Assembly: GCA_011982905.1 (NCBI GenBank)
Contig: GCA_011982905.1_4767.1
Length of the DNA stretch: 59,846 bases
Source: a phage
Strand: one strand, 5' to 3'
This document shows positions 33,300-55,444 of the stretch, piece after piece (within the stretch, counting starts at the first letter, position 1; each line of letters starts with the position of its first letter). Made by a program: the position numbers and the translations under genes. The notes under the pieces were generated by a model. It had not been told where the DNA came from, did no database searches, and worked only from the letters and a program-made list of their open reading frames with translations.

Positions 33300-34181
33300 T
33301 TACTGCTGCCACGGCGGGACTGCTGCTTGTGCCGGATGCGGTTCAGCTTGCTGCTGTGGCTGCGCTTGCTGCTGCGGTGCTGCTGCCTGGCCCGGCTGTG
33401 CTACCTGCTGCGCCCACGGCTGCTGAGCTGCTTCCTGTGCTACTGGCTGTTGTACCGGAGCTTGCTGAACTGGCTGCTGCGGCGCTGCGTTTTGAGCAGG
33501 ATTATCCCACGGCTGCGGTGCGGCGTTCTGCCACGGTTGAGCTGCTGCGCCCTGCTGTGGTGCTGGTTGCTGTACAGGCTGCTGAACTGGCTGCTGTTGC
33601 TGTACCGGAGCTTGCTGCTGTACAGGTGCTTGCTGTTGCTGAGCAAACGGGTTAGCTGCTGGTTGCTGTGGTGCTGCACCCGGGAAAGTCGGCTGCTGTG
33701 CTGGAGCACCTGCACCGAACGGGTTAGCTACTGCTGGAGCACCCATTGATGGAGCCTCTGCTGCTTTTTCTGCATACTTAACCGGATCGTTGATGTTAGC
33801 GTAACCGTTAGGCTCGTTGCTGTCTTCATAACCTTCCTGAGAACGAACTTTCAGACGCAGGTTTAGCGGAATGTTATGCAGTTGAGCAGGAGTATCCCAG
33901 CGAATTACCCCTACTGCGTGGGAAAGCGCGCCCAGTTGCTCGTAAGCGATACGCACAGTATCTTCATTGTCGTTGATGACATTGTAACGAGCAAAGATTT
34001 TGCGACCTTTAGCAAAACCGTCAATAATGCTAAACGTTACCTGGATCGCCATACCGCCATTTTTGGTCGGTTTAAATTCAGATACTTCAATTACCGCTTT
34101 ATACCAACCTTTCGGCAATGCGCCGTAAGAAGGTGCTTGATAGCTGCTCGCGTCAAAGTGGAAATTAGTTGGCATAGTCAT
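33300..34181 (-). CDS. SSB-like protein (DUF669-type N-terminal domain) with Gln/Pro/Ala-rich C-terminal tail
   Basis: 293 aa; N-terminal ~130 aa globular; C-terminal ~150 aa low complexity (QQPVQQQAPVQQ...); adjacent to Sak4-like ATPase. Confidence 0.5.
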   Translation of the reverse strand: MTMPTNFHFDASSYQAPSYGALPKGWYKAVIEVSEFKPTKNGGMAIQVTFSIIDGFAKGRKIFARYNVINDNEDTVRIAYEQLGALSHAVGVIRWDTPAQLHNIPLNLRLKVRSQEGYEDSNEPNGYANINDPVKYAEKAAEAPSMGAPAVANPFGAGAPAQQPTFPGAAPQQPAANPFAQQQQAPVQQQAPVQQQQPVQQPVQQPAPQQGAAAQPWQNAAPQPWDNPAQNAAPQQPVQQAPVQQPVAQEAAQQPWAQQVAQPGQAAAPQQQAQPQQQAEPHPAQAAVPPWQQ

Positions 34182-40648: not shown

Positions 40649-42991
40649 TTATTCCTCTTCTCCTAAGTTTGCCATAATACCTTCAACATCTTGCGTAATG
40701 TGCCAAGCTGCGCCAGTGAATCCCAGTTTGATAGTCTCCTCCCGTGTTACCGGAACAAGAGCACCCATAGCAACCATCTCTTTGATCGTAGACTCAATTG
40801 CTGCGGACAATCCGTGGTGATAGTTTTTAAACGCGGACTTACTTGCAAGACGAGTAGTAATATCGCCCCGCGTGATAATACCTTCTTTACGCAGATCTAC
40901 ACGTTTAACTTTCACCCAATCTTTAGTTAGATAATTCACACAAACCTGGCACATAGTACGGATACGAGCTTCGTCATTAGTACCGATACCCCCACTATGC
41001 CATTCCTTCATAATGATATCCTGTCCATGACGCACAAAGTCTAAGGCCCATTGTACATGATAGGTCTGCACAACCGGATTGATCCAGTTTTCTCCCACAG
41101 CTAGCAGGGCGGATAGACGTAATACCTTCAGGTGCGCACGGTTCCAGGGCTGACGGATTGCTTCGTCTTTGGTTGCGTTAATATTACGGTCACATTCGTC
41201 GTTAAACTGATCACATAATGCTTCCGCTTCCGGACTAAACTGCACTTCAATACTTTGATGCTTTGCCATTGCGACTAAGGTGTGGTTAACAAGATGGCAC
41301 ACCATATCCCGCAAATGCTGATCCATTGTAGTCTGCTGGTTCTTGTTTAAAGGTGGTCGATCCCCTTCATAGCGGACAACATGGAAACGGGATAAGAAAC
41401 CATCCTCCATCATTTCACGGGTTAACGCTTCAAAGAAAGTGTCCGGTGTCGTTTCGCCCATGATGCTATAGGCCACACCTTGTTGAGCTTCCGTATTATT
41501 AGCCTTATCAGAATAAGACATACCACCAACAATAGACATCTGACCGGACTTTTGATAAACATCGGTAAGGTCATTCTTGAAGCTTTGCATTGGTGAACCT
41601 GCTGGCGCCGTTGCCATTGCTTTAATAATCTTACCAAACTCACCGTTCAAGTTGATAAAAGATTGTTTGTCCGCAAAAGATTTACGCAGTGCGGAGCCGG
41701 AAGCGCATCGGTCAAAAGATACAAAGCTATGAATCTGCGGAAACGGTTCCTGAAGCTGGCTAACTATATTAGATAGCCCACTGTTCAACGTTTCTTTACC
41801 AACACCAGAACGAGCAATAAGGACGAAATATCCATTAAGACCCGATTGCGGAATCTGCCAGACCTTCCCGCATACCCCAGCCATAAAGCCTAGCGCTGTC
41901 ACAATAGAAATTTCTTTCACTGGTCGGACGGATGCTTTATAGATGTATTTCGCAAGCTCCCCAGCAAGCCCCGGCGGCCAGTCAATAGCGGTTGCATCAA
42001 TAGATGTACTTTCTGCAACTACGGTCTGCCCCTGTGTTGTTTCAACAGTTACGGGCATTTCCGCTACCTGTTGCATTGCACTGTGTGCCGCTTGCATACG
42101 GGCAGCATAATCCCGCGCCAGCGCCGCTACGTTTTCCTGGGCGATGCGCTCACGCTCCATGCGACCGCGACACATACGCAAGCAACGGTCAATATGAACA
42201 TTGTTCTTATTAGCCTTCTCACGTTTGCCCAGCGCACTATAACGGAACAGACGGCGACATTGCTCATTACTTTCCGTGTAGAATGCATACATAGAAATAA
42301 GGGCAAGGTCTGCTTCAGACTGGGAAGGGAATCCCATTTCAACCCATTCACCGTTAAATAACCGTGCATACTTATCGCCGTTATCTGCTTCAAGCGCACG
42401 CTGATGAATAGTTGCATCATCTTCTACCGGATCTTTTTCTACCAGTTCAATTTCATATGTCTTGCGCTGAAGATCTATTTCATTCACAAGCATAGTAAGG
42501 TAATGATCACGTTCTGCAACTGGTTTGTTATATACAGGATTGCCCGTGCAGATAATAAAACGCTCCTGACTATAAACCTCGACACCATCACGTCGACGAC
42601 CTTTACCGATGTTACCTCTTAACCACAGGTGAACACCCAAGCCTGAGCGGCTCACTTCGGTGTAAGTATCGAACGCAGTCATGATCTGTTCGAAGCGGCG
42701 CAACTGCTCCGGCGTCGTGTGCTTCTTGGGATCTGTTTCATTGGTTGCATTCTTCACATCCAGGTCGATGCAGGTGAACGGGTCTTGTGCAGTAAGCACG
42801 AAGCCAATATAAGGTTTATTGAAATGAGCGGCGCAACCTTTGGCAGATTCAAACGTCATAAGCATATCCGGATCAGTAACGTCCGCCGCCATCAAACGTC
42901 CAATATCGTTATCCCATACGAGCGGCTTTTTATCCGCATCGGCGACCGCCCATTGTGGGAAAGCTTTAATTTCAGCGGGAAACAGTTCCAT
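40649..42991 (-). CDS. primase-helicase (AEP-type primase domain plus P-loop helicase domain)
   Basis: 780 aa; N-terminal CIDLD and SRSGLGVHLWL motifs typical of archaeo-eukaryotic primase-like domains; central Walker A ARSGVGKET. Confidence 0.7.
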   Translation of the reverse strand: MELFPAEIKAFPQWAVADADKKPLVWDNDIGRLMAADVTDPDMLMTFESAKGCAAHFNKPYIGFVLTAQDPFTCIDLDVKNATNETDPKKHTTPEQLRRFEQIMTAFDTYTEVSRSGLGVHLWLRGNIGKGRRRDGVEVYSQERFIICTGNPVYNKPVAERDHYLTMLVNEIDLQRKTYEIELVEKDPVEDDATIHQRALEADNGDKYARLFNGEWVEMGFPSQSEADLALISMYAFYTESNEQCRRLFRYSALGKREKANKNNVHIDRCLRMCRGRMERERIAQENVAALARDYAARMQAAHSAMQQVAEMPVTVETTQGQTVVAESTSIDATAIDWPPGLAGELAKYIYKASVRPVKEISIVTALGFMAGVCGKVWQIPQSGLNGYFVLIARSGVGKETLNSGLSNIVSQLQEPFPQIHSFVSFDRCASGSALRKSFADKQSFINLNGEFGKIIKAMATAPAGSPMQSFKNDLTDVYQKSGQMSIVGGMSYSDKANNTEAQQGVAYSIMGETTPDTFFEALTREMMEDGFLSRFHVVRYEGDRPPLNKNQQTTMDQHLRDMVCHLVNHTLVAMAKHQSIEVQFSPEAEALCDQFNDECDRNINATKDEAIRQPWNRAHLKVLRLSALLAVGENWINPVVQTYHVQWALDFVRHGQDIIMKEWHSGGIGTNDEARIRTMCQVCVNYLTKDWVKVKRVDLRKEGIITRGDITTRLASKSAFKNYHHGLSAAIESTIKEMVAMGALVPVTREETIKLGFTGAAWHITQDVEGIMANLGEEE

Positions 42992-42997
42992 ATTAAA

Positions 42998-43201
42998 TTA
43001 AGACCTCCGACGCTTATCGCCTTGCATTGCTATAAGTGCTGGCTCAGCAATTTCGCGCACGTATACAAATACGTTAGCGATACGAACAGCTCCAGGAAGT
43101 ATATCTCGATTGCGGCACAACTTATAACGACTAACCCCGAACCGGGCTTCAATCTCTGATGTGGTTATATATTTAGCATCAAACTCGTCTTGTGCAGTCA
43201 T
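42998..43201 (-). CDS. small helix-turn-helix DNA-binding protein (AlpA/excisionase-like)
   Basis: 67 aa; ITTSEIEARFGVSRYKL resembles an HTH_17-type motif. Confidence 0.45.
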   Translation of the reverse strand: MTAQDEFDAKYITTSEIEARFGVSRYKLCRNRDILPGAVRIANVFVYVREIAEPALIAMQGDKRRRS

Positions 43202-43262
43202 AGCTCCTCCTTTGTCCGCACACTATACACAGATAAGAGGAGCGATTGCAACCAAATTTGCA

Positions 43263-44045
43263 TTATTGCGCAGCAAAGTTCGCATATCCCATAACGCATT
43301 CATATACCTCTTCAGGAGTGCGACCTTCCCGTAGATTTATCATCCATTCGTCCAATTGTCCAAGGCGTTGCTGAGCTTTCGTGATGTCATGAAACGCTTG
43401 CCATGGAAAAAAGTTTCCACCAGCTAGTGCAACCTCTATGCCCGTAGCGGCGTTGCCATATGCCTTGAGCTTGCAAACAGGCCAACGTCCACGATTATCC
43501 CAAATTGCGGGTTCCACGTTTTTATCCGGTCGCGAATACCATCTATTTTTAAGCGATGTGATTTCTTTTTCTGTTAACTGCTCACCCTTCGCACGCTCAT
43601 TCTTGGCAAGCCAAACTTTAAACGCGGACTCATTATTTTTATCCTTTGTTTGGCAAACCTTAAAAGCATTCTCATATGGTGCTTGCGGCCCAAACCGTTT
43701 GTAGTAGTCAAACTTGCCGCGGAACTTTGCAACTTCTTTAGTTGTAAGTTCACGATTTTCTTTTTCCTTTATTTGTTCGCGCACCCATGCCATAAACTTA
43801 TCACGCTCAGGGTTTTCTTTTTTTGCAGCAGCTTTTCCATGTTTAACTTTAGGCGTCACATCTTGTTCGCTATCAAAATAATCCTCAACCATCTTAAGAG
43901 CCTGCTCTTTAGTTACCTTTCCGCGGATACGGGAGCACGCTTGCACGACCCAGGCCGCGAAGCACAAATCCTTAACCACATTGGGGTGAGTGCTGGTCGG
44001 CTGTTCTTCCGCCACCGCGTTATTGTTAGTCAGCTCTGTATTCAT
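43263..44045 (-). CDS. hypothetical protein adjacent to the iteron array
   Basis: ATG at 44045 with GGAGG RBS (the tracked ORF extends into the repeat region); 260 aa; no family recognised. Confidence 0.45.
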   Translation of the reverse strand: MNTELTNNNAVAEEQPTSTHPNVVKDLCFAAWVVQACSRIRGKVTKEQALKMVEDYFDSEQDVTPKVKHGKAAAKKENPERDKFMAWVREQIKEKENRELTTKEVAKFRGKFDYYKRFGPQAPYENAFKVCQTKDKNNESAFKVWLAKNERAKGEQLTEKEITSLKNRWYSRPDKNVEPAIWDNRGRWPVCKLKAYGNAATGIEVALAGGNFFPWQAFHDITKAQQRLGQLDEWMINLREGRTPEEVYECVMGYANFAAQ

Positions 44046-44049
44046 ATAG

Positions 44050-44340
44050 CCTCCGATAGGGTATTGTCTTAACCCTATGGTAAGACCCTCCCTATTAAAT
44101 TGCAAGAGTTATTGTAAAACAATAGGTATAGGGTGCAATACAGGGTTCATATAGGGTAACCCTATAAACACCCTATAAAATACCCTCCCTATGCAGCTTT
44201 CTAAATTTATAGTTTTAGTTTACCCCTTGCGCTCCCGCAGAAAAACTAAAGATAGGGGTACTAGGGTATAACAATGGCAAATACCCTATACCCTACTCCC
44301 TATACTATGATTCTAAAAAATTTGGTGTATACCCCTATAA
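44050..44340. repeat. iteron-like array of CCCTATA / TATAGGG motifs, including a 17-bp perfect palindrome
   Basis: About 14 copies of the CCTAT core in both orientations within ~300 bp; perfect palindrome TATAGGGTAACCCTATA at 44150-44166. Confidence 0.6.
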
Positions 44341-44480
44341 ACTTATAAACTTTCAGTCAACTAACTAAAATAAAACTAATTAAACTAATATTAATAATAA
44401 CTATAAATATATATAAAATAAGGATTTATTATTATTGTATATAGTACCTATTGGTATTATGTGATGAGTTTATAGTCACT
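44341..44480. other. AT-rich tract adjacent to the iterons (candidate DNA unwinding element)
   Basis: Roughly 140 bp of very AT-rich sequence (TAAAATAAAACTAATTAAACTAATATTAATAATAACTATAAATATATATAAAATAAGG...). Confidence 0.45.
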
Positions 44481-44682
44481 AAATAAACTCTATAAATTTT
44501 AATAAACCTGAACGGATGCAGATCAAAAACGAGAAGTCAAGTGCTTTTGAGGGAAATTTATTGAACTATTGTGATCGGATGGTATATCAAGCTATAATGC
44601 GCTTAATCGCGGGATATTGGAGGAGGACTTTATTACGCGGTTAACCGGACCAGTAGGAGGGCTGGCCCGGAGAAGTTAGAAT

Positions 44683-44868
44683 TTATTTGCGGACGAATAC
44701 AGAGCCGACAAATAATGTTGATTGAGTAGCAGCTTGCTCGATTAATTCGCCAACAAGCTGGGACTGCGTTAGAGGTTTAAGGCCTTCTTTGGCCCGTGCT
44801 TCATTTACACGGCGCTGAAGGTCTTTTAGGTATTGAGTTGAGAAGCTATCTAATTGCATTTTCGTCAC
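44683..44868 (-). CDS. hypothetical small protein (possible DNA-binding regulator)
   Basis: 61 aa; AGGAG RBS; helical charged composition. Confidence 0.45.
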   Translation of the reverse strand: MTKMQLDSFSTQYLKDLQRRVNEARAKEGLKPLTQSQLVGELIEQAATQSTLFVGSVFVRK

Positions 44869-45030
44869 TCCTAGGGCTCCCGCAGAAGCCCGTTGGTTGA
44901 TGTGGTTATAGATTATACCAGTGAGTACCTTGCTTTTAATTTTTGGTTTGCTGCGATAATTTTACATACAGGTATAACAACCAAAAGATCATTATAGTCC
45001 AGCCAGAATTGAATAAGCGCCTGCATTTAA

Positions 45031-46992: not shown

Positions 46993-47207
46993 TGAAACTA
47001 ACTAAACAAGAGATTGTCAAACGCATCCAGGAATCTACTGGCAGATATGTTGGCAATGGTTTAATTGTTAAAGTTGTGGATTACTCCAATAACCCTTTGG
47101 CTCCGGAGCCAATAGCCTATAAACTGTCTTGGATATGCATGTTTTCAGGTAAACGCGAACGCTGTATGTACTATCCAAACACCGTTGGACTTCAGTCCTG
47201 CAAATAA
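46993..47207 (+). CDS. hypothetical small protein
   Basis: Internal ATG of the tracked ORF preceded by GGAGT. Confidence 0.4.
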
Positions 47208-47287
47208 CTACAATATAACGCACACAGCGCCACGCTAGCGAGCTAATGCACAAAGGTAATGGTAATGCATTAGATCGGGCGAAACAG

Positions 47288-47334
47288 GCGCACAGCGTCG
47301 CGCACAGCTCGCACAGCTCGCACAGCGCACACAG
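47288..47334. repeat. GC-rich short tandem repeat (GCACAGC x4 plus one degenerate copy)
   Basis: Copies at about 47290, 47302, 47311, 47320 and a GCACACAG variant; local GC content far above the window average. Confidence 0.6.
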
Positions 47335-47683
47335 ACCCACGCAGGCCCAGCCGCGCGACCCAACCCATCCTTTTCCAGGTACTTGGATCGCCGGGGCGTG
47401 CCCTGTCCATCCTGATAGTATCCTTGTTTGAAAATCTAACTCGTCAACTATGTTGTTGCCGACATACACACCCATCACTTTACTATCCACCACATCCATG
47501 ACCCCACCTACCTTCTTTTTGAATATATTGCGCTCATCCTTTCTAAATATATGGATTTTGGTAGTAAATTCTGAGTCGTCAACGTATAATTCGTCTTGTA
47601 GCTGCTCCATAGCTATCATCTTTAAGCGGATGCAACCAATTTCTATGAATTCACACCCGTTTTAGAGCATCAAGGAGGTATTT

Positions 47684-47935
47684 ATGTGCGACACCAGTGC
47701 AAGCGCTACACCCAGCACCTCCAGCAATGTGGTTACAGAGGTAAATGCAATGCGATTAGGTCCATATCGCGGCTATTACGGTCGTGCTGCATGGAATGAC
47801 GCTACTCAACGTTTTGAAGGCTGGATTATCTGCCCGGAACGTGTTAAATTTCACTCCGTAAAAGAGAAAAATATCGTTCTTAATTTTCAAAAATGTGTCA
47901 CTAAATATGTAGAGGAGCAAGAAGAATGCGTGTAA
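47684..47935 (+). CDS. hypothetical small protein
   Basis: 83 aa; strong AAGGAGG RBS. Confidence 0.5.
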   Translation: MCDTSASATPSTSSNVVTEVNAMRLGPYRGYYGRAAWNDATQRFEGWIICPERVKFHSVKEKNIVLNFQKCVTKYVEEQEECV

Positions 47936-53349: not shown

Positions 53350-53907
53350 ATGAACGGGGCAAGTCAAGAGCAATATGATCGTGACTGGACGAATTACATC
53401 CAGTATGCAAATAGCTTGTCCGCTGAAGAGATGGCAATACGTGACAAAGTTGTTGCTGAGTACATGTTCGACTACAATTGGACTAACGCTTGCATGAGAT
53501 GCGGGTTCAATGCTATGTTTGCACAGGAGCTTGGCCAACGCTTTGCCACGGACTGTTATGTTCGATGGAAGCTCAAGGAGATTGAAAGATCCCGTGTTCA
53601 ACGTACTTCTGAGCAAGCTAACATTGAAGCAGACCTTGAGCGTCAGCATATCATTGAAGCATTAAAACGTGAAGCTCATTATACAGGACCGGGATCTTCT
53701 CAAGCTGCTAGAGTCGCCGCATTGGGCAAGCTTGCACAAATTTATGATTTGGATGCTCCCAAGAAGGCTAAGATTGATGTTACTAACAGAGGCGGCGTAA
53801 TGATAGTCCCTGCTGTAGCAAATATTGACGAATGGGAAAAAACTGCATCCGAGTCTCAACAACGACTAGTTAAAGAGACTGAAGATGGAGCTAAACCAAC
53901 AACCTGA
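53350..53907 (+). CDS. terminase small subunit (putative)
   Basis: 185-aa ORF with AAGGGGG RBS immediately upstream of the large terminase gene; call by position. Confidence 0.5.
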   Translation: MNGASQEQYDRDWTNYIQYANSLSAEEMAIRDKVVAEYMFDYNWTNACMRCGFNAMFAQELGQRFATDCYVRWKLKEIERSRVQRTSEQANIEADLERQHIIEALKREAHYTGPGSSQAARVAALGKLAQIYDLDAPKKAKIDVTNRGGVMIVPAVANIDEWEKTASESQQRLVKETEDGAKPTT

Positions 53908-55444
53908 TAACATGCCGCGAGTCGTCTGGAAACCACATCCAGGTTCACAGACACTCGCTCTATCCTGCCCCGCTGATATCATCCTATACCACGGAACTCG
54001 CGGTCCTGGAAAAACGGACTGCCAGCTTATGCGTTTCCGTAAGAATGTTGGTGTAGGGTACGGTAAATTTTGGAAGGGTATTATATTCGACCGTGAATAT
54101 AAAAACCTTGATGACCTTGTAACTAAATCCCAGCGTTGGTTTCCTGAATTTAAAGACGGGGCTAAATTCCTTAGCTCTAAGTCTGATTATAAATGGGTTT
54201 GGCCTACTGGTGAAGAGCTACTGTTCCGTGTTGCTTGTAAAGAAAAGGATTACTGGTCTTATCACGGTCACGAATACCCATTTATCGGATGGAACGAATT
54301 AACAAAATATCCGGACGGGCGTTTGTTTGAAGCTATGATGTCCTGTAACCGTTCATCTTTCTTACCAGAAGATAACCCAATTATTAATCCAGATGGTACG
54401 GTCACATATTTACCGGATATCCCTCTTGAAGTGTTTGCTACCAGTAACCCGTTTGGTGCGGGGCATAACTGGGTTAAGAAACGCTTCATTGATGCTGCAC
54501 CGATGGGTAAAATACTCAGGAAGACTACGCGAGTGTTTAACCCGCGGACGCAGAAAGAGGAAGATGTGGTTACGACGCAATGTCATATCTTCGGATCTTA
54601 CCGCGAGAACAAAAACCTGAGCCCGAAATATATTGCAGAGCTTATGTCCATCACAGACCCGAACAAACGAGCTGCATGGTTAGGCGGTAGCTGGGATATC
54701 ACCTCCGGCGGTATGTTCGATGATCTGTGGCGTAGCACTGTTCATAAAATACGCCCATTCCCAATCCCATCAAGCTGGAAAATTACACGTTCTTTCGACT
54801 GGGGTTCTTCAAAACCTTTCTCTGTCGGTTGGTGGGCTATTAGTGATGGTTCGGATGTTGTGCGTGAAGACGGAACTACATTCTCTACTGTACGCGGCGA
54901 CTTGTTCCGTATTAACGAATGGTACGGCACTAACGGTAAAACAAACGAAGGTTTACATTTGCTGGACTCAGAGATTGCAAGCGGTATACTGGAGCGGGAA
55001 TTGGCCTGGGGTATACACGACCGTGTAGTTCCTGGACCTGCGGATAACTCTATTTGGGATCTGGAGAACAATAACTCTACCGCTGCAACAATGGCGAAGA
55101 AAATCCGTCTTAACGGCAAGCTGTATAACGGTATCCATTGGAAGAGAAGTGATAAATCTGCTGGGTCGCGTAAACGCGGATGGCAGAAAATGCGTGAGTT
55201 TCTTAAAGCTGCATTGCGGGAAGATGCAAACGGTAAACCTTTGCCGGGACCACGTGAAAATCCAGCAATGTATGTTTTCGATAACTGCAATTATTTCTTT
55301 GAACTGGTTCCAAGTCTCCCGCGCGATGAAGTAGATCAGGACGACGTTGATACGGAATGTGAAGACCATATGGGCGATGAAGTACGTTATATGGTTCTGG
55401 ATCAAGCTGTTTATACAGGTGTTGGTAAAACTATCGGTATTTAA
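53885..55444 (+). CDS. terL: terminase large subunit
   Basis: 519 aa; Walker A-like HGTRGPGKT near the N-terminus; acidic nuclease-type C-terminal half; directly upstream of the portal gene. The start could instead be the ATG at 53912. Confidence 0.8.
   Translation: MELNQQPDNMPRVVWKPHPGSQTLALSCPADIILYHGTRGPGKTDCQLMRFRKNVGVGYGKFWKGIIFDREYKNLDDLVTKSQRWFPEFKDGAKFLSSKSDYKWVWPTGEELLFRVACKEKDYWSYHGHEYPFIGWNELTKYPDGRLFEAMMSCNRSSFLPEDNPIINPDGTVTYLPDIPLEVFATSNPFGAGHNWVKKRFIDAAPMGKILRKTTRVFNPRTQKEEDVVTTQCHIFGSYRENKNLSPKYIAELMSITDPNKRAAWLGGSWDITSGGMFDDLWRSTVHKIRPFPIPSSWKITRSFDWGSSKPFSVGWWAISDGSDVVREDGTTFSTVRGDLFRINEWYGTNGKTNEGLHLLDSEIASGILERELAWGIHDRVVPGPADNSIWDLENNNSTAATMAKKIRLNGKLYNGIHWKRSDKSAGSRKRGWQKMREFLKAALREDANGKPLPGPRENPAMYVFDNCNYFFELVPSLPRDEVDQDDVDTECEDHMGDEVRYMVLDQAVYTGVGKTIGI

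Follow-up and report, generated by a model that had tools for sequence, protein, structure and literature searches.

Within the 59,846-nucleotide stretch of phage DNA analyzed here (NCBI GenBank assembly GCA_011982905.1, contig GCA_011982905.1_4767.1; hereafter the window), the segment 44046-44505 stands out as a candidate replication origin, and we consider it probable that it is served by a cognate initiator that represents a new family and would also repress its own gene. The proposed initiator is an orphan protein of 260 amino acids, hereafter abbreviated as the 260-aa protein, which is encoded on the minus strand at 43263..44045 and belongs to the family phrog_27223. In the mechanism that we propose, this protein would bind 14 short repeats arranged in three palindromic clusters, probably as a symmetric oligomer, and its loading on the repeats would distort or melt the adjoining, unstable AT-rich tract; the phage primase-polymerase/helicase would then enter at the melted tract, possibly aided by a small protein of 67 amino acids (67-aa protein). 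Since the three repeats closest to the 260-aa gene lie over its candidate promoter and 5' untranslated region (UTR), the protein would also repress its own synthesis. The repeat array lies directly upstream of three minus-strand genes, in the order 260-aa protein, 67-aa protein (42998..43201; phrog_11967; possibly of helix-turn-helix [HTH] type) and a 780-aa primase-polymerase/helicase (40649..42991), the presumed replicative helicase, and thus at the head of the replication block. This gene context had been described in an earlier note on the same DNA and is borne out by the coordinates.

The array contains 14 cores of the sequence CCCTA/TAGGG in the interval 44046-44345, 12 of which extend to CCCTAT and 7 to the exact CCCTATA; the previous count of about 14 copies of CCCTATA/TATAGGG therefore holds for the 5-bp core and not for the full 7-mer. 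With respect to the rest of the window, this interval is enriched 82-fold in the 5-mer, 199-fold in the 6-mer and 463-fold in the 7-mer. The sequence beyond the array holds 12 scattered copies of CCCTAT, the expectation for the entire window being about 20, and no second cluster of CCCTA is present elsewhere in the 59.8 kb. The combination of a single cluster with no excess of sites elsewhere argues against a global regulator. We also considered whether the repeats might be chance or neutral low-complexity DNA, an explanation that has in its favor only the general AT-rich and repetitive character of intergenic DNA. It is effectively refuted by the comparison of the 14 observed cores with the maximum of 6 per 300 bp found in 300 composition-preserving block shuffles, and is further contradicted by the conservation of the layout in a divergent relative (metagenomic phage P0003) and by the concerted replacement of all cores in a second class of arrays (see below), so that we attach next to no credence to it.

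The cores are embedded in a consensus of approximately 9 bp, wAmCCCTATa, of which only the 5-bp core is invariant; they occur in both orientations, with a spacing of 7-23 bp, and fall into three clusters. Within each cluster, the plus strand reads TAGGG on the left and CCCTA on the right, so that each cluster is an imperfect palindrome. Cluster A (44057..44094) is the closest to the 260-aa gene and contains the cores 44057-, 44073+ and 44090+ (the sign indicating the orientation), plus a degenerate CCCTC at 44086. Cluster B (44129..44191) contains the cores 44129-, 44152-, 44160+, 44171+ and 44187+, together with degenerate copies at 44141- and 44183+, and forms an imperfect palindrome of about 60 bp centred on 44158 (inverted repeat I1, with 28-nt arms that are 71% complementary). 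Its centre is the perfect palindrome TATAGGGT-A-ACCCTATA at 44150-44166, already pointed out in the earlier note and read directly from the sequence; the potential of cluster B to form a single-stranded cruciform or hairpin is not significant (z = -1.9). Cluster C (44253..44302) contains the minus-oriented cores 44253- and 44262- followed by the plus-oriented 44284+, 44291+ and 44298+, and corresponds to inverted repeat I6, with 14-nt arms that are 86% complementary. The last core, a solitary CCCTATA in plus orientation (44333..44339), is located at the margin of the AT-rich block that is conserved.

To evaluate the possible function of the array we compared 22 loci, including 9 additional ones retrieved from IMG/VR and JGI metagenome scans; co-segregation was followed at the array locus only, namely for the array, the 260-aa protein, the 67-aa protein and the primase-helicase. 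Each array has cores of either the TAGGG/CCCTA or the TAGTG/CACTA type, and the two types are never mixed. Loci of the first class have 9-14 TAGGG and at most one TAGTG, whereas those of the second have 10-14 TAGTG and at most two TAGGG in the upstream stretch scanned, the strays lying outside the array. At every locus with a TAGGG array, the 260-aa protein is 56-98% identical to that of the window and carries the helix FMxWVRE...REL; at every locus with a TAGTG array, it is only 40-45% identical and carries FLxWVS..LGxEL, with a deletion of four residues. The layout is common to both classes, with a left cluster, a central spacer with G/C runs and a right cluster, and the TAGTG cluster at the position equivalent to cluster C carries TAGTAGTAGTAGTG ... 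CCACTATCACTACTAT. P0003, despite 56% protein divergence, retains both the number of cores and their arrangement in clusters. Between the classes, one and the same base distinguishes all cores in corresponding positions, as would be expected for sites read by one trans-acting protein of differing specificity. This concerted change of the core together with the adjacent cassette lends support to the previous suggestion that the repeats are specific binding sites of a phage protein. No further specificity classes emerged, for all 9 loci from IMG/VR and JGI fall in the same two classes. Both classes infect Escherichia coli K-12, as exemplified by CAjan (MG1655) and KurtStettler (K-12), and thus a host factor cannot explain the switch between TAGGG and TAGTG.

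The boundaries of the variable region are remarkably clean in pairs of otherwise closely related phages. Between the window and KurtStettler (TAGTG class), sliding-window identity falls to 30-78% over 42992-44322, with sharp borders, while the flanks are 92-100% identical except for the last window ahead of the primase start, where identity dips to 84%; the divergent stretch comes after an insertion that is found only in KurtStettler and adjoins the primase start. The solitary core at 44333..44339 is situated just past the right border of this region (approximately 44322/44323). A comparable divergence over the array and the 260-aa gene separates the metagenomic phages P0003 (TAGGG) and P0004 (TAGTG), in which the 67-aa gene is only partly divergent. 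In these alignments, the array and the 260-aa gene are swapped as a single cassette, the flanks being nearly identical. Genes for HNH homing endonucleases are inserted at differing sites around the cassette, namely in Dru_SM1 (locus L010, 2534-3058), in locus L012 (1724-2188 and 4064-4597) and in CAjan (gp67; locus L009, 20971-21453), and such insertions may explain the clean exchange of the module. Of note, an extra gene for a 71-aa protein lies between the 67-aa gene and the primase gene in KurtStettler (locus L002, 3485-3700), KS_A8 and SeppeHuegi (loci L003/L004), and is not present in the window.

These comparisons also help in deciding which of the neighboring proteins reads the repeats. 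The primase-helicase of the window (TAGGG) is 99.6% identical to that of KurtStettler (TAGTG), and those of P0003 and P0004 are 99.4% identical; the two pairs represent distinct backgrounds, their primases being only 73% identical between pairs. A protein that is nearly invariant across repeat classes is not the specificity determinant. The 67-aa protein, which the earlier note presented as a small HTH protein and possible reader of the repeats, is not a likely reader either, because its type does not follow the type of the array: P0003 has a 67-aa protein like that of Kurt/Greed (GISKFKMSRLRD) and yet a TAGGG array, and P0002 has a 67-aa protein unchanged from that of the window. The 67-aa gene does lie within the swapped cassette in one phage pair, and its product may be an accessory factor or a loader. 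Even the HTH label is not confirmed, since the 67-aa protein has no match in Pfam or NCBIfam and its best PDB profile match, the HTH of sigma-factor region 4, is non-significant (E = 0.6). Its C-terminal tail QGDKRRRS (42998-43024) is the same in every variant, although elsewhere the protein diverges to 52%; the codons for this tail contain the ribosome-binding site (RBS) of the primase gene (GGAGG), which may explain the conservation. There remains the 260-aa protein, the first helical repeat of which (approximately residues 78-130) tracks the repeat class at every locus. Its C-terminal third is mosaic, for the C-termini of Dru_SM1 and SA126VB resemble that of the window despite their TAGTG arrays. 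On this basis we infer that the 260-aa protein is the binder of the repeats.

The role of initiator that we propose for the 260-aa protein is thus based on context and co-variation, not homology. Searches of Pfam (strict and with E up to 10), PHROGs, NCBIfam and PDB profiles returned no informative match for this protein, and its homologs were found only in Seuratvirus-like phages (24 phage records). The family amounts to four clusters at 90% identity in a collection of 5.8 billion proteins and to two clusters at 50% in an exhaustive HMMER search (1.84 billion representatives); a eukaryotic BTB protein returned by the latter search (P0006) was discarded as a spurious match inflated by repeats. 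In an AlphaFold2 (AF2) model of modest quality (predicted local distance difference test, pLDDT, 65.5), a conserved N-terminal pair of helices is followed by a disordered linker of basic character, two helical units, the invariant WDNRGRWP motif and, at the C-terminus, an alpha/beta domain predicted with confidence. The two helical units resemble a tandem repeat of the form F..W...LT.KE..., which is weakly supported (BLASTP E = 0.026, in register).

The second component of the candidate origin is the AT-rich tract at 44356..44505, a candidate DNA-unwinding element that holds the nearly invariant TAAATATATATAAAATAAGG. The GC content is 19% in 44300-44499 and 10% in the core 44360-44439, and by nearest-neighbor free energy no duplex in the window is less stable than 44356-44505 (z from +5.2 to +5.4, with the runner-up at 3.0-3.5). 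The AT-rich tract previously noticed beside the array is thus real and coincides with the lowest duplex stability of the whole window. Phages of different repeat class share it with 96-100% identity, and its nearly invariant 20-mer is found in 14 of 17 loci; the tract is conserved independently of the repeats and of the swapped cassette. Binding of the 260-aa protein to the repeats would, we suggest, lead from here to the initiation of replication.

The array also overlaps candidate transcription signals of the 260-aa gene. A candidate sigma-70 promoter on the minus strand (44077..44105) consists of TTGCAA (44105..44100), a spacer of 17 nt and TACCAT (44082..44077), and is followed by the RBS GGAGG (44054..44050), with the start codon ATG at 44045. 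The spacer, the -10/+1 region and the 5' UTR all lie under cluster A. This cluster may therefore constitute an autoregulatory operator, through which the 260-aa gene would be controlled by its own product. In KurtStettler the equivalent TTGCAA-N17-TATAGT was detected by the promoter scan and has a TAGTG repeat in its -10 element; in SA126VB the depositors annotated TTGCCA-N17-TATAAT, which is also overlapped by repeats. The two alternatives that the earlier note left side by side, origin or operators, are thus probably both partly right, given that three gene-proximal repeats overlap the candidate promoter.

The array could, on the other hand, be a purely transcriptional operator by which the 260-aa protein (or another product of the cassette) represses or activates its own replication or 'middle' operon, with the AT-rich tract serving as promoter/UP-element DNA or as a spacer and replication starting elsewhere. 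Such a role would accord with the overlap between the repeats and the promoter-like site of the 260-aa gene in every class, with the further promoter-like sites in the AT-rich tract (TTAATA-N17-TAAAAT) and at 44569-44598, with the lack of similarity of the 260-aa protein to known initiators and with a terminator-like hairpin at 44649-44672, which would part an upstream early unit from the 260-aa unit. It explains cluster A and does not readily explain the 11 further sites: 14 sites over 290 bp are far more than known autoregulatory operators use, and the majority make up two additional palindromic clusters, at a distance of 50-260 bp on the upstream side of the promoter. Moreover, there are no sites at other promoters, the 260-aa gene heads the primase-helicase operon and the genome-wide minimum of duplex stability directly adjoins the array, its conservation extending to phages with a swapped array. 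We regard a purely transcriptional function as unlikely, though as the main alternative to an origin.

Several observations nevertheless weigh against the interpretation of 44046-44505 as an origin bound and autoregulated by the 260-aa protein. The repeats do not have the form of direct iterons in regular phase, and the region 43900-44750 contains no TTWTNCACA, TTNTNCACA or WATCAANNNNTTR, i.e. neither DnaA boxes nor consensus sites for IHF; 13-mer motifs of the oriC type are equally absent. The candidate promoter of the 260-aa gene has 8 of 12 matches, which is below the scan threshold, and promoter-like matches in these regions are no commoner than in shuffled sequences, so that only their positional conservation carries weight. 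The segment of the 260-aa protein that tracks the repeat class is encoded beside the array, and therefore physical linkage contributes to the association; in addition, the G/T switch of the core may have been a single evolutionary event. The GC skew cuts both ways. The descent of the cumulative skew stops at approximately 44500, 1.7 kb before the point of transcription divergence, and the skew of the minus-strand genes on the right-hand side of the array is +0.025, as compared with -0.086 +/- 0.045 in windows of equal length from the minus-strand block, of which 2.3% reach this value (p ~0.02); these data constitute a weak hint in support of an origin. Against it, the skew is largely explained by the direction of transcription and its global minimum lies at 47722.

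We then compared the arrangement with known replication systems. The iteron-containing theta replicons, represented by pSC101 RepA, pPS10 RepA, F RepE, R6K pi and P1 RepA, have direct iterons of 17-22 bp. They present the same order of AT-rich element, repeat array, inverted repeats over the rep promoter and rep gene, the inverted repeats providing autorepression, to which the repeats over the candidate promoter of the 260-aa gene may correspond, and their initiator is encoded beside its own sites, as we propose for the 260-aa protein. The present repeats differ in being short cores in both orientations, arranged in three palindromic clusters with a spacing of 7-23 bp, in contrast to regular direct repeats of 17-22 bp, so that the term 'iterons' used in the earlier note does not apply in its classical sense; what stands of that reading is the origin-like layout beside the primase-helicase, and what falls is the classical iteron architecture. 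Other differences are that no DnaA boxes were found here in 43900-44750 and that the helicase is the host DnaB in iteron replicons, the phage primase-polymerase/helicase in the present case. Pfam and profile searches found no Rep_3 or winged-helix signature in the 260-aa protein.

The lambdoid O/ori-lambda system offers another parallel. Ori-lambda lies inside the O gene and contains four 19-bp repeats, which co-vary with the initiator as a module among related phages, as we observe here, and in both systems an AT-rich region flanks the repeats. By analogy with O, the initiator could use a variable part to read the DNA and a conserved one to contact the replication partner, which is itself conserved. 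The array considered here is instead intergenic and upstream, with no CCCTATA inside 43263-44045, and membership of the 260-aa protein in the phage O family was not detected with Pfam. The alpha ori/crr system of satellite phage P4 and the Rep ori of Staphylococcus aureus pathogenicity islands (SaPI) and phage-inducible chromosomal islands (PICI) have short repeats (6-8 bp) in two orientations that adjoin an AT-rich tract, an array beside the gene for the primase/helicase and a specificity that varies between related elements, all features shared with the window. In P4 alpha and SaPI Rep, it is the primase/helicase itself that carries the specificity domain, whereas here the primase-helicase is practically identical across the repeat classes and specificity must lie in a separate protein. 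The results of these comparisons indicate that membership in the Rep_3 iteron, lambdoid O and P4/SaPI families fails on the defining features tested. Finally, the G38P-G39P-G40P/oriL system of Bacillus phage SPP1 is likewise a three-gene module, consisting of an origin binder, a small helper and a helicase, with repeats beside an AT-rich segment. SPP1 carries oriL inside gene 38 and has an additional origin, oriR; the window differs in having no second cluster, and no sequence relationship to G38P-G39P-G40P was detected.

The related phage 9g, a member of Nonagvirus and not of Seuratvirus, has neither the 260-aa protein nor the array nor the conserved AT-rich block, and for this reason was rejected as a comparator. 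Beside its gp33 there is an unannotated gap of 1 kb (locus L017, 9868-10904) with AT-rich stretches and repeats of its own, TGCAAA..TTTTTGC and, twice, AATTTATAAAGATC; this gap may be an analogous, non-homologous origin. Phage 9g bears on two other explanations of the array. The first is that it represents a centromere-like or plasmid-maintenance site, bound by an adaptor encoded in the cassette and serving a carrier or pseudolysogenic state. Short repeats in two orientations upstream of a small operon do resemble centromeres of the omega/ParR type, and stable 'pseudolysogenic associations' have been reported for 9g (PMC4276943). This phage, however, is precisely the one without array and 260-aa protein, the neighbors of the array are replication genes and no partition ATPase of the ParA or ParM kind is found among the neighbors scanned or annotated, which makes a centromere-like function very unlikely. 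The second explanation, a pac-like packaging site or a terminal-repeat boundary, we judge to be scarcely credible. Packaging sites can in general hold clustered short repeats and bent AT-rich DNA, and the GenBank records of SLUR26 and SLUR76 begin approximately 0.9 kb from the array. Yet the genes for the large terminase (53885..55444, Terminase_6N) and the portal protein are 9.4 kb away, the array varies together with the neighboring 260-aa gene and the physical genome end of 9g maps to the region of divergent promoters between the early and late blocks (PMC4276943), not beside the primase.

A possible connection of the candidate origin with DNA modification deserves consideration. The DpdA of CAjan is reported to target GA, GGC and GGT motifs for the insertion of dPreQ0 (PMC10484667). 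All 14 cores of the window (44057-44339) end in TAGGGT, TAGGGA or TAGGGG-TA, and so contain GGT or GA, while those of the other class end in TAGTGGC or TAGTGA, containing GGC or GA. The presence of DpdA motifs in the cores raises the speculative possibility that the initiator reads, or is regulated by, sites modified with 7-deazaguanine. Combining these elements, the 260-aa protein might belong to a new initiator family that reads the 5-bp core by tandem helical repeats, with a one-base switch from TAGGG to TAGTG carried on a cassette shuffled by neighborhoods rich in homing endonucleases and with dPreQ0 gating the binding. In such a scheme dPreQ0, which is exposed in the major groove, could serve to tell newly synthesized DNA apart from DNA that is incoming or mature, in analogy with Dam methylation and SeqA at oriC. 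We consider this combined proposal rather improbable in its entirety.

The literature that we searched describes no replication origin or initiator for Seuratvirus or Queuovirinae, phages which are models for 7-deazaguanine DNA modification and members of the BASEL collection. If the interpretation proposed here is true, the orphan family phrog_27223 would gain a function and the two classes, with their near-identical flanks, would provide a system to study how a protein and about 14 sites change their specificity together. There would also be a means to ask whether DNA hypermodification affects origin recognition, and the cassette of origin and initiator would be useful for phage engineering and for interpreting the compatibility of phages in superinfection and recombination.

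Regarding the genome setting, the 7 kb around the array share 95-97% identity with the Escherichia phages slur01, CAjan and Seurat (Queuovirinae, Seuratvirus), and the 481-bp array region is 97.5-99.4% identical to slur01, CAjan, Seurat, SLUR26 and SLUR76; judged by these identities, the window is an E. coli Seuratvirus. Its minus-strand block extends from 20.5 to 46.2 kb and comprises queuosine-type modification genes in addition to the replication genes. The primase-helicase matches PF22763 (NrS-1 pol HBD), phrog_3022 (DNA primase) and DUF3987. The array belongs to an intergenic region, 44046-44682, that is flanked by two minus-strand genes, and no Rfam match was found in 43900-45000.

Two other elements lie in this intergenic region, to the right of the AT-rich tract. 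The first is a 40-nt block, TTGAACTATTGTGATCGGAWGGTATATCAAGCTATAATG, on the plus strand (44560..44601), which hardly changes among 12 variants and has the form of a rightward sigma-70 promoter, TTGTGA-N18-TATAAT (44569-44598), pointing away from the AT-rich tract. Candidate roles for this block are the activation of unwinding driven by supercoiling, a promoter for cargo genes or a part of a leftward terminator; in some relatives it precedes an HNH gene or an open reading frame (ORF) of 109 codons. The second element is a GC-rich hairpin, CCGGACCAG-taggaggg-CTGGCCCGG (44649..44672), which is annotated in SA126VB as a rho-independent terminator for leftward transcription. The terminator scan of the window does not call this hairpin because it has no T-run, while in P0003 the hairpin together with a T-run scores as a leftward terminator. 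Its pairing is kept through different sequences in three lineages (GCG..CGC, CTGC..GCAG and GTGC..GCAC). A plus-strand ORF of 42 codons (44516..44644), annotated as a coding sequence in KS_A8, was rejected as a gene since it is not conserved among relatives: its start region is lost in the lineages of P0003 and P0004. It overlaps the conserved promoter-like block and is probably no gene.

Two minor observations concern other parts of the window. A minus-strand ORF of 183 codons (47068-47619) lies inside the plus-strand block, overlapping several plus-strand ORFs; it has no match in Pfam and coincides with the global minimum of the cumulative GC skew (47722). The hexamers CAGCAG/GCAGCA occur twelve times in 300 bp at approximately 33303-33600, inside the minus-strand gene for a DUF669 protein (33300..34181), a clustering that matches that of the array in strength and presumably codes for a low-complexity segment.

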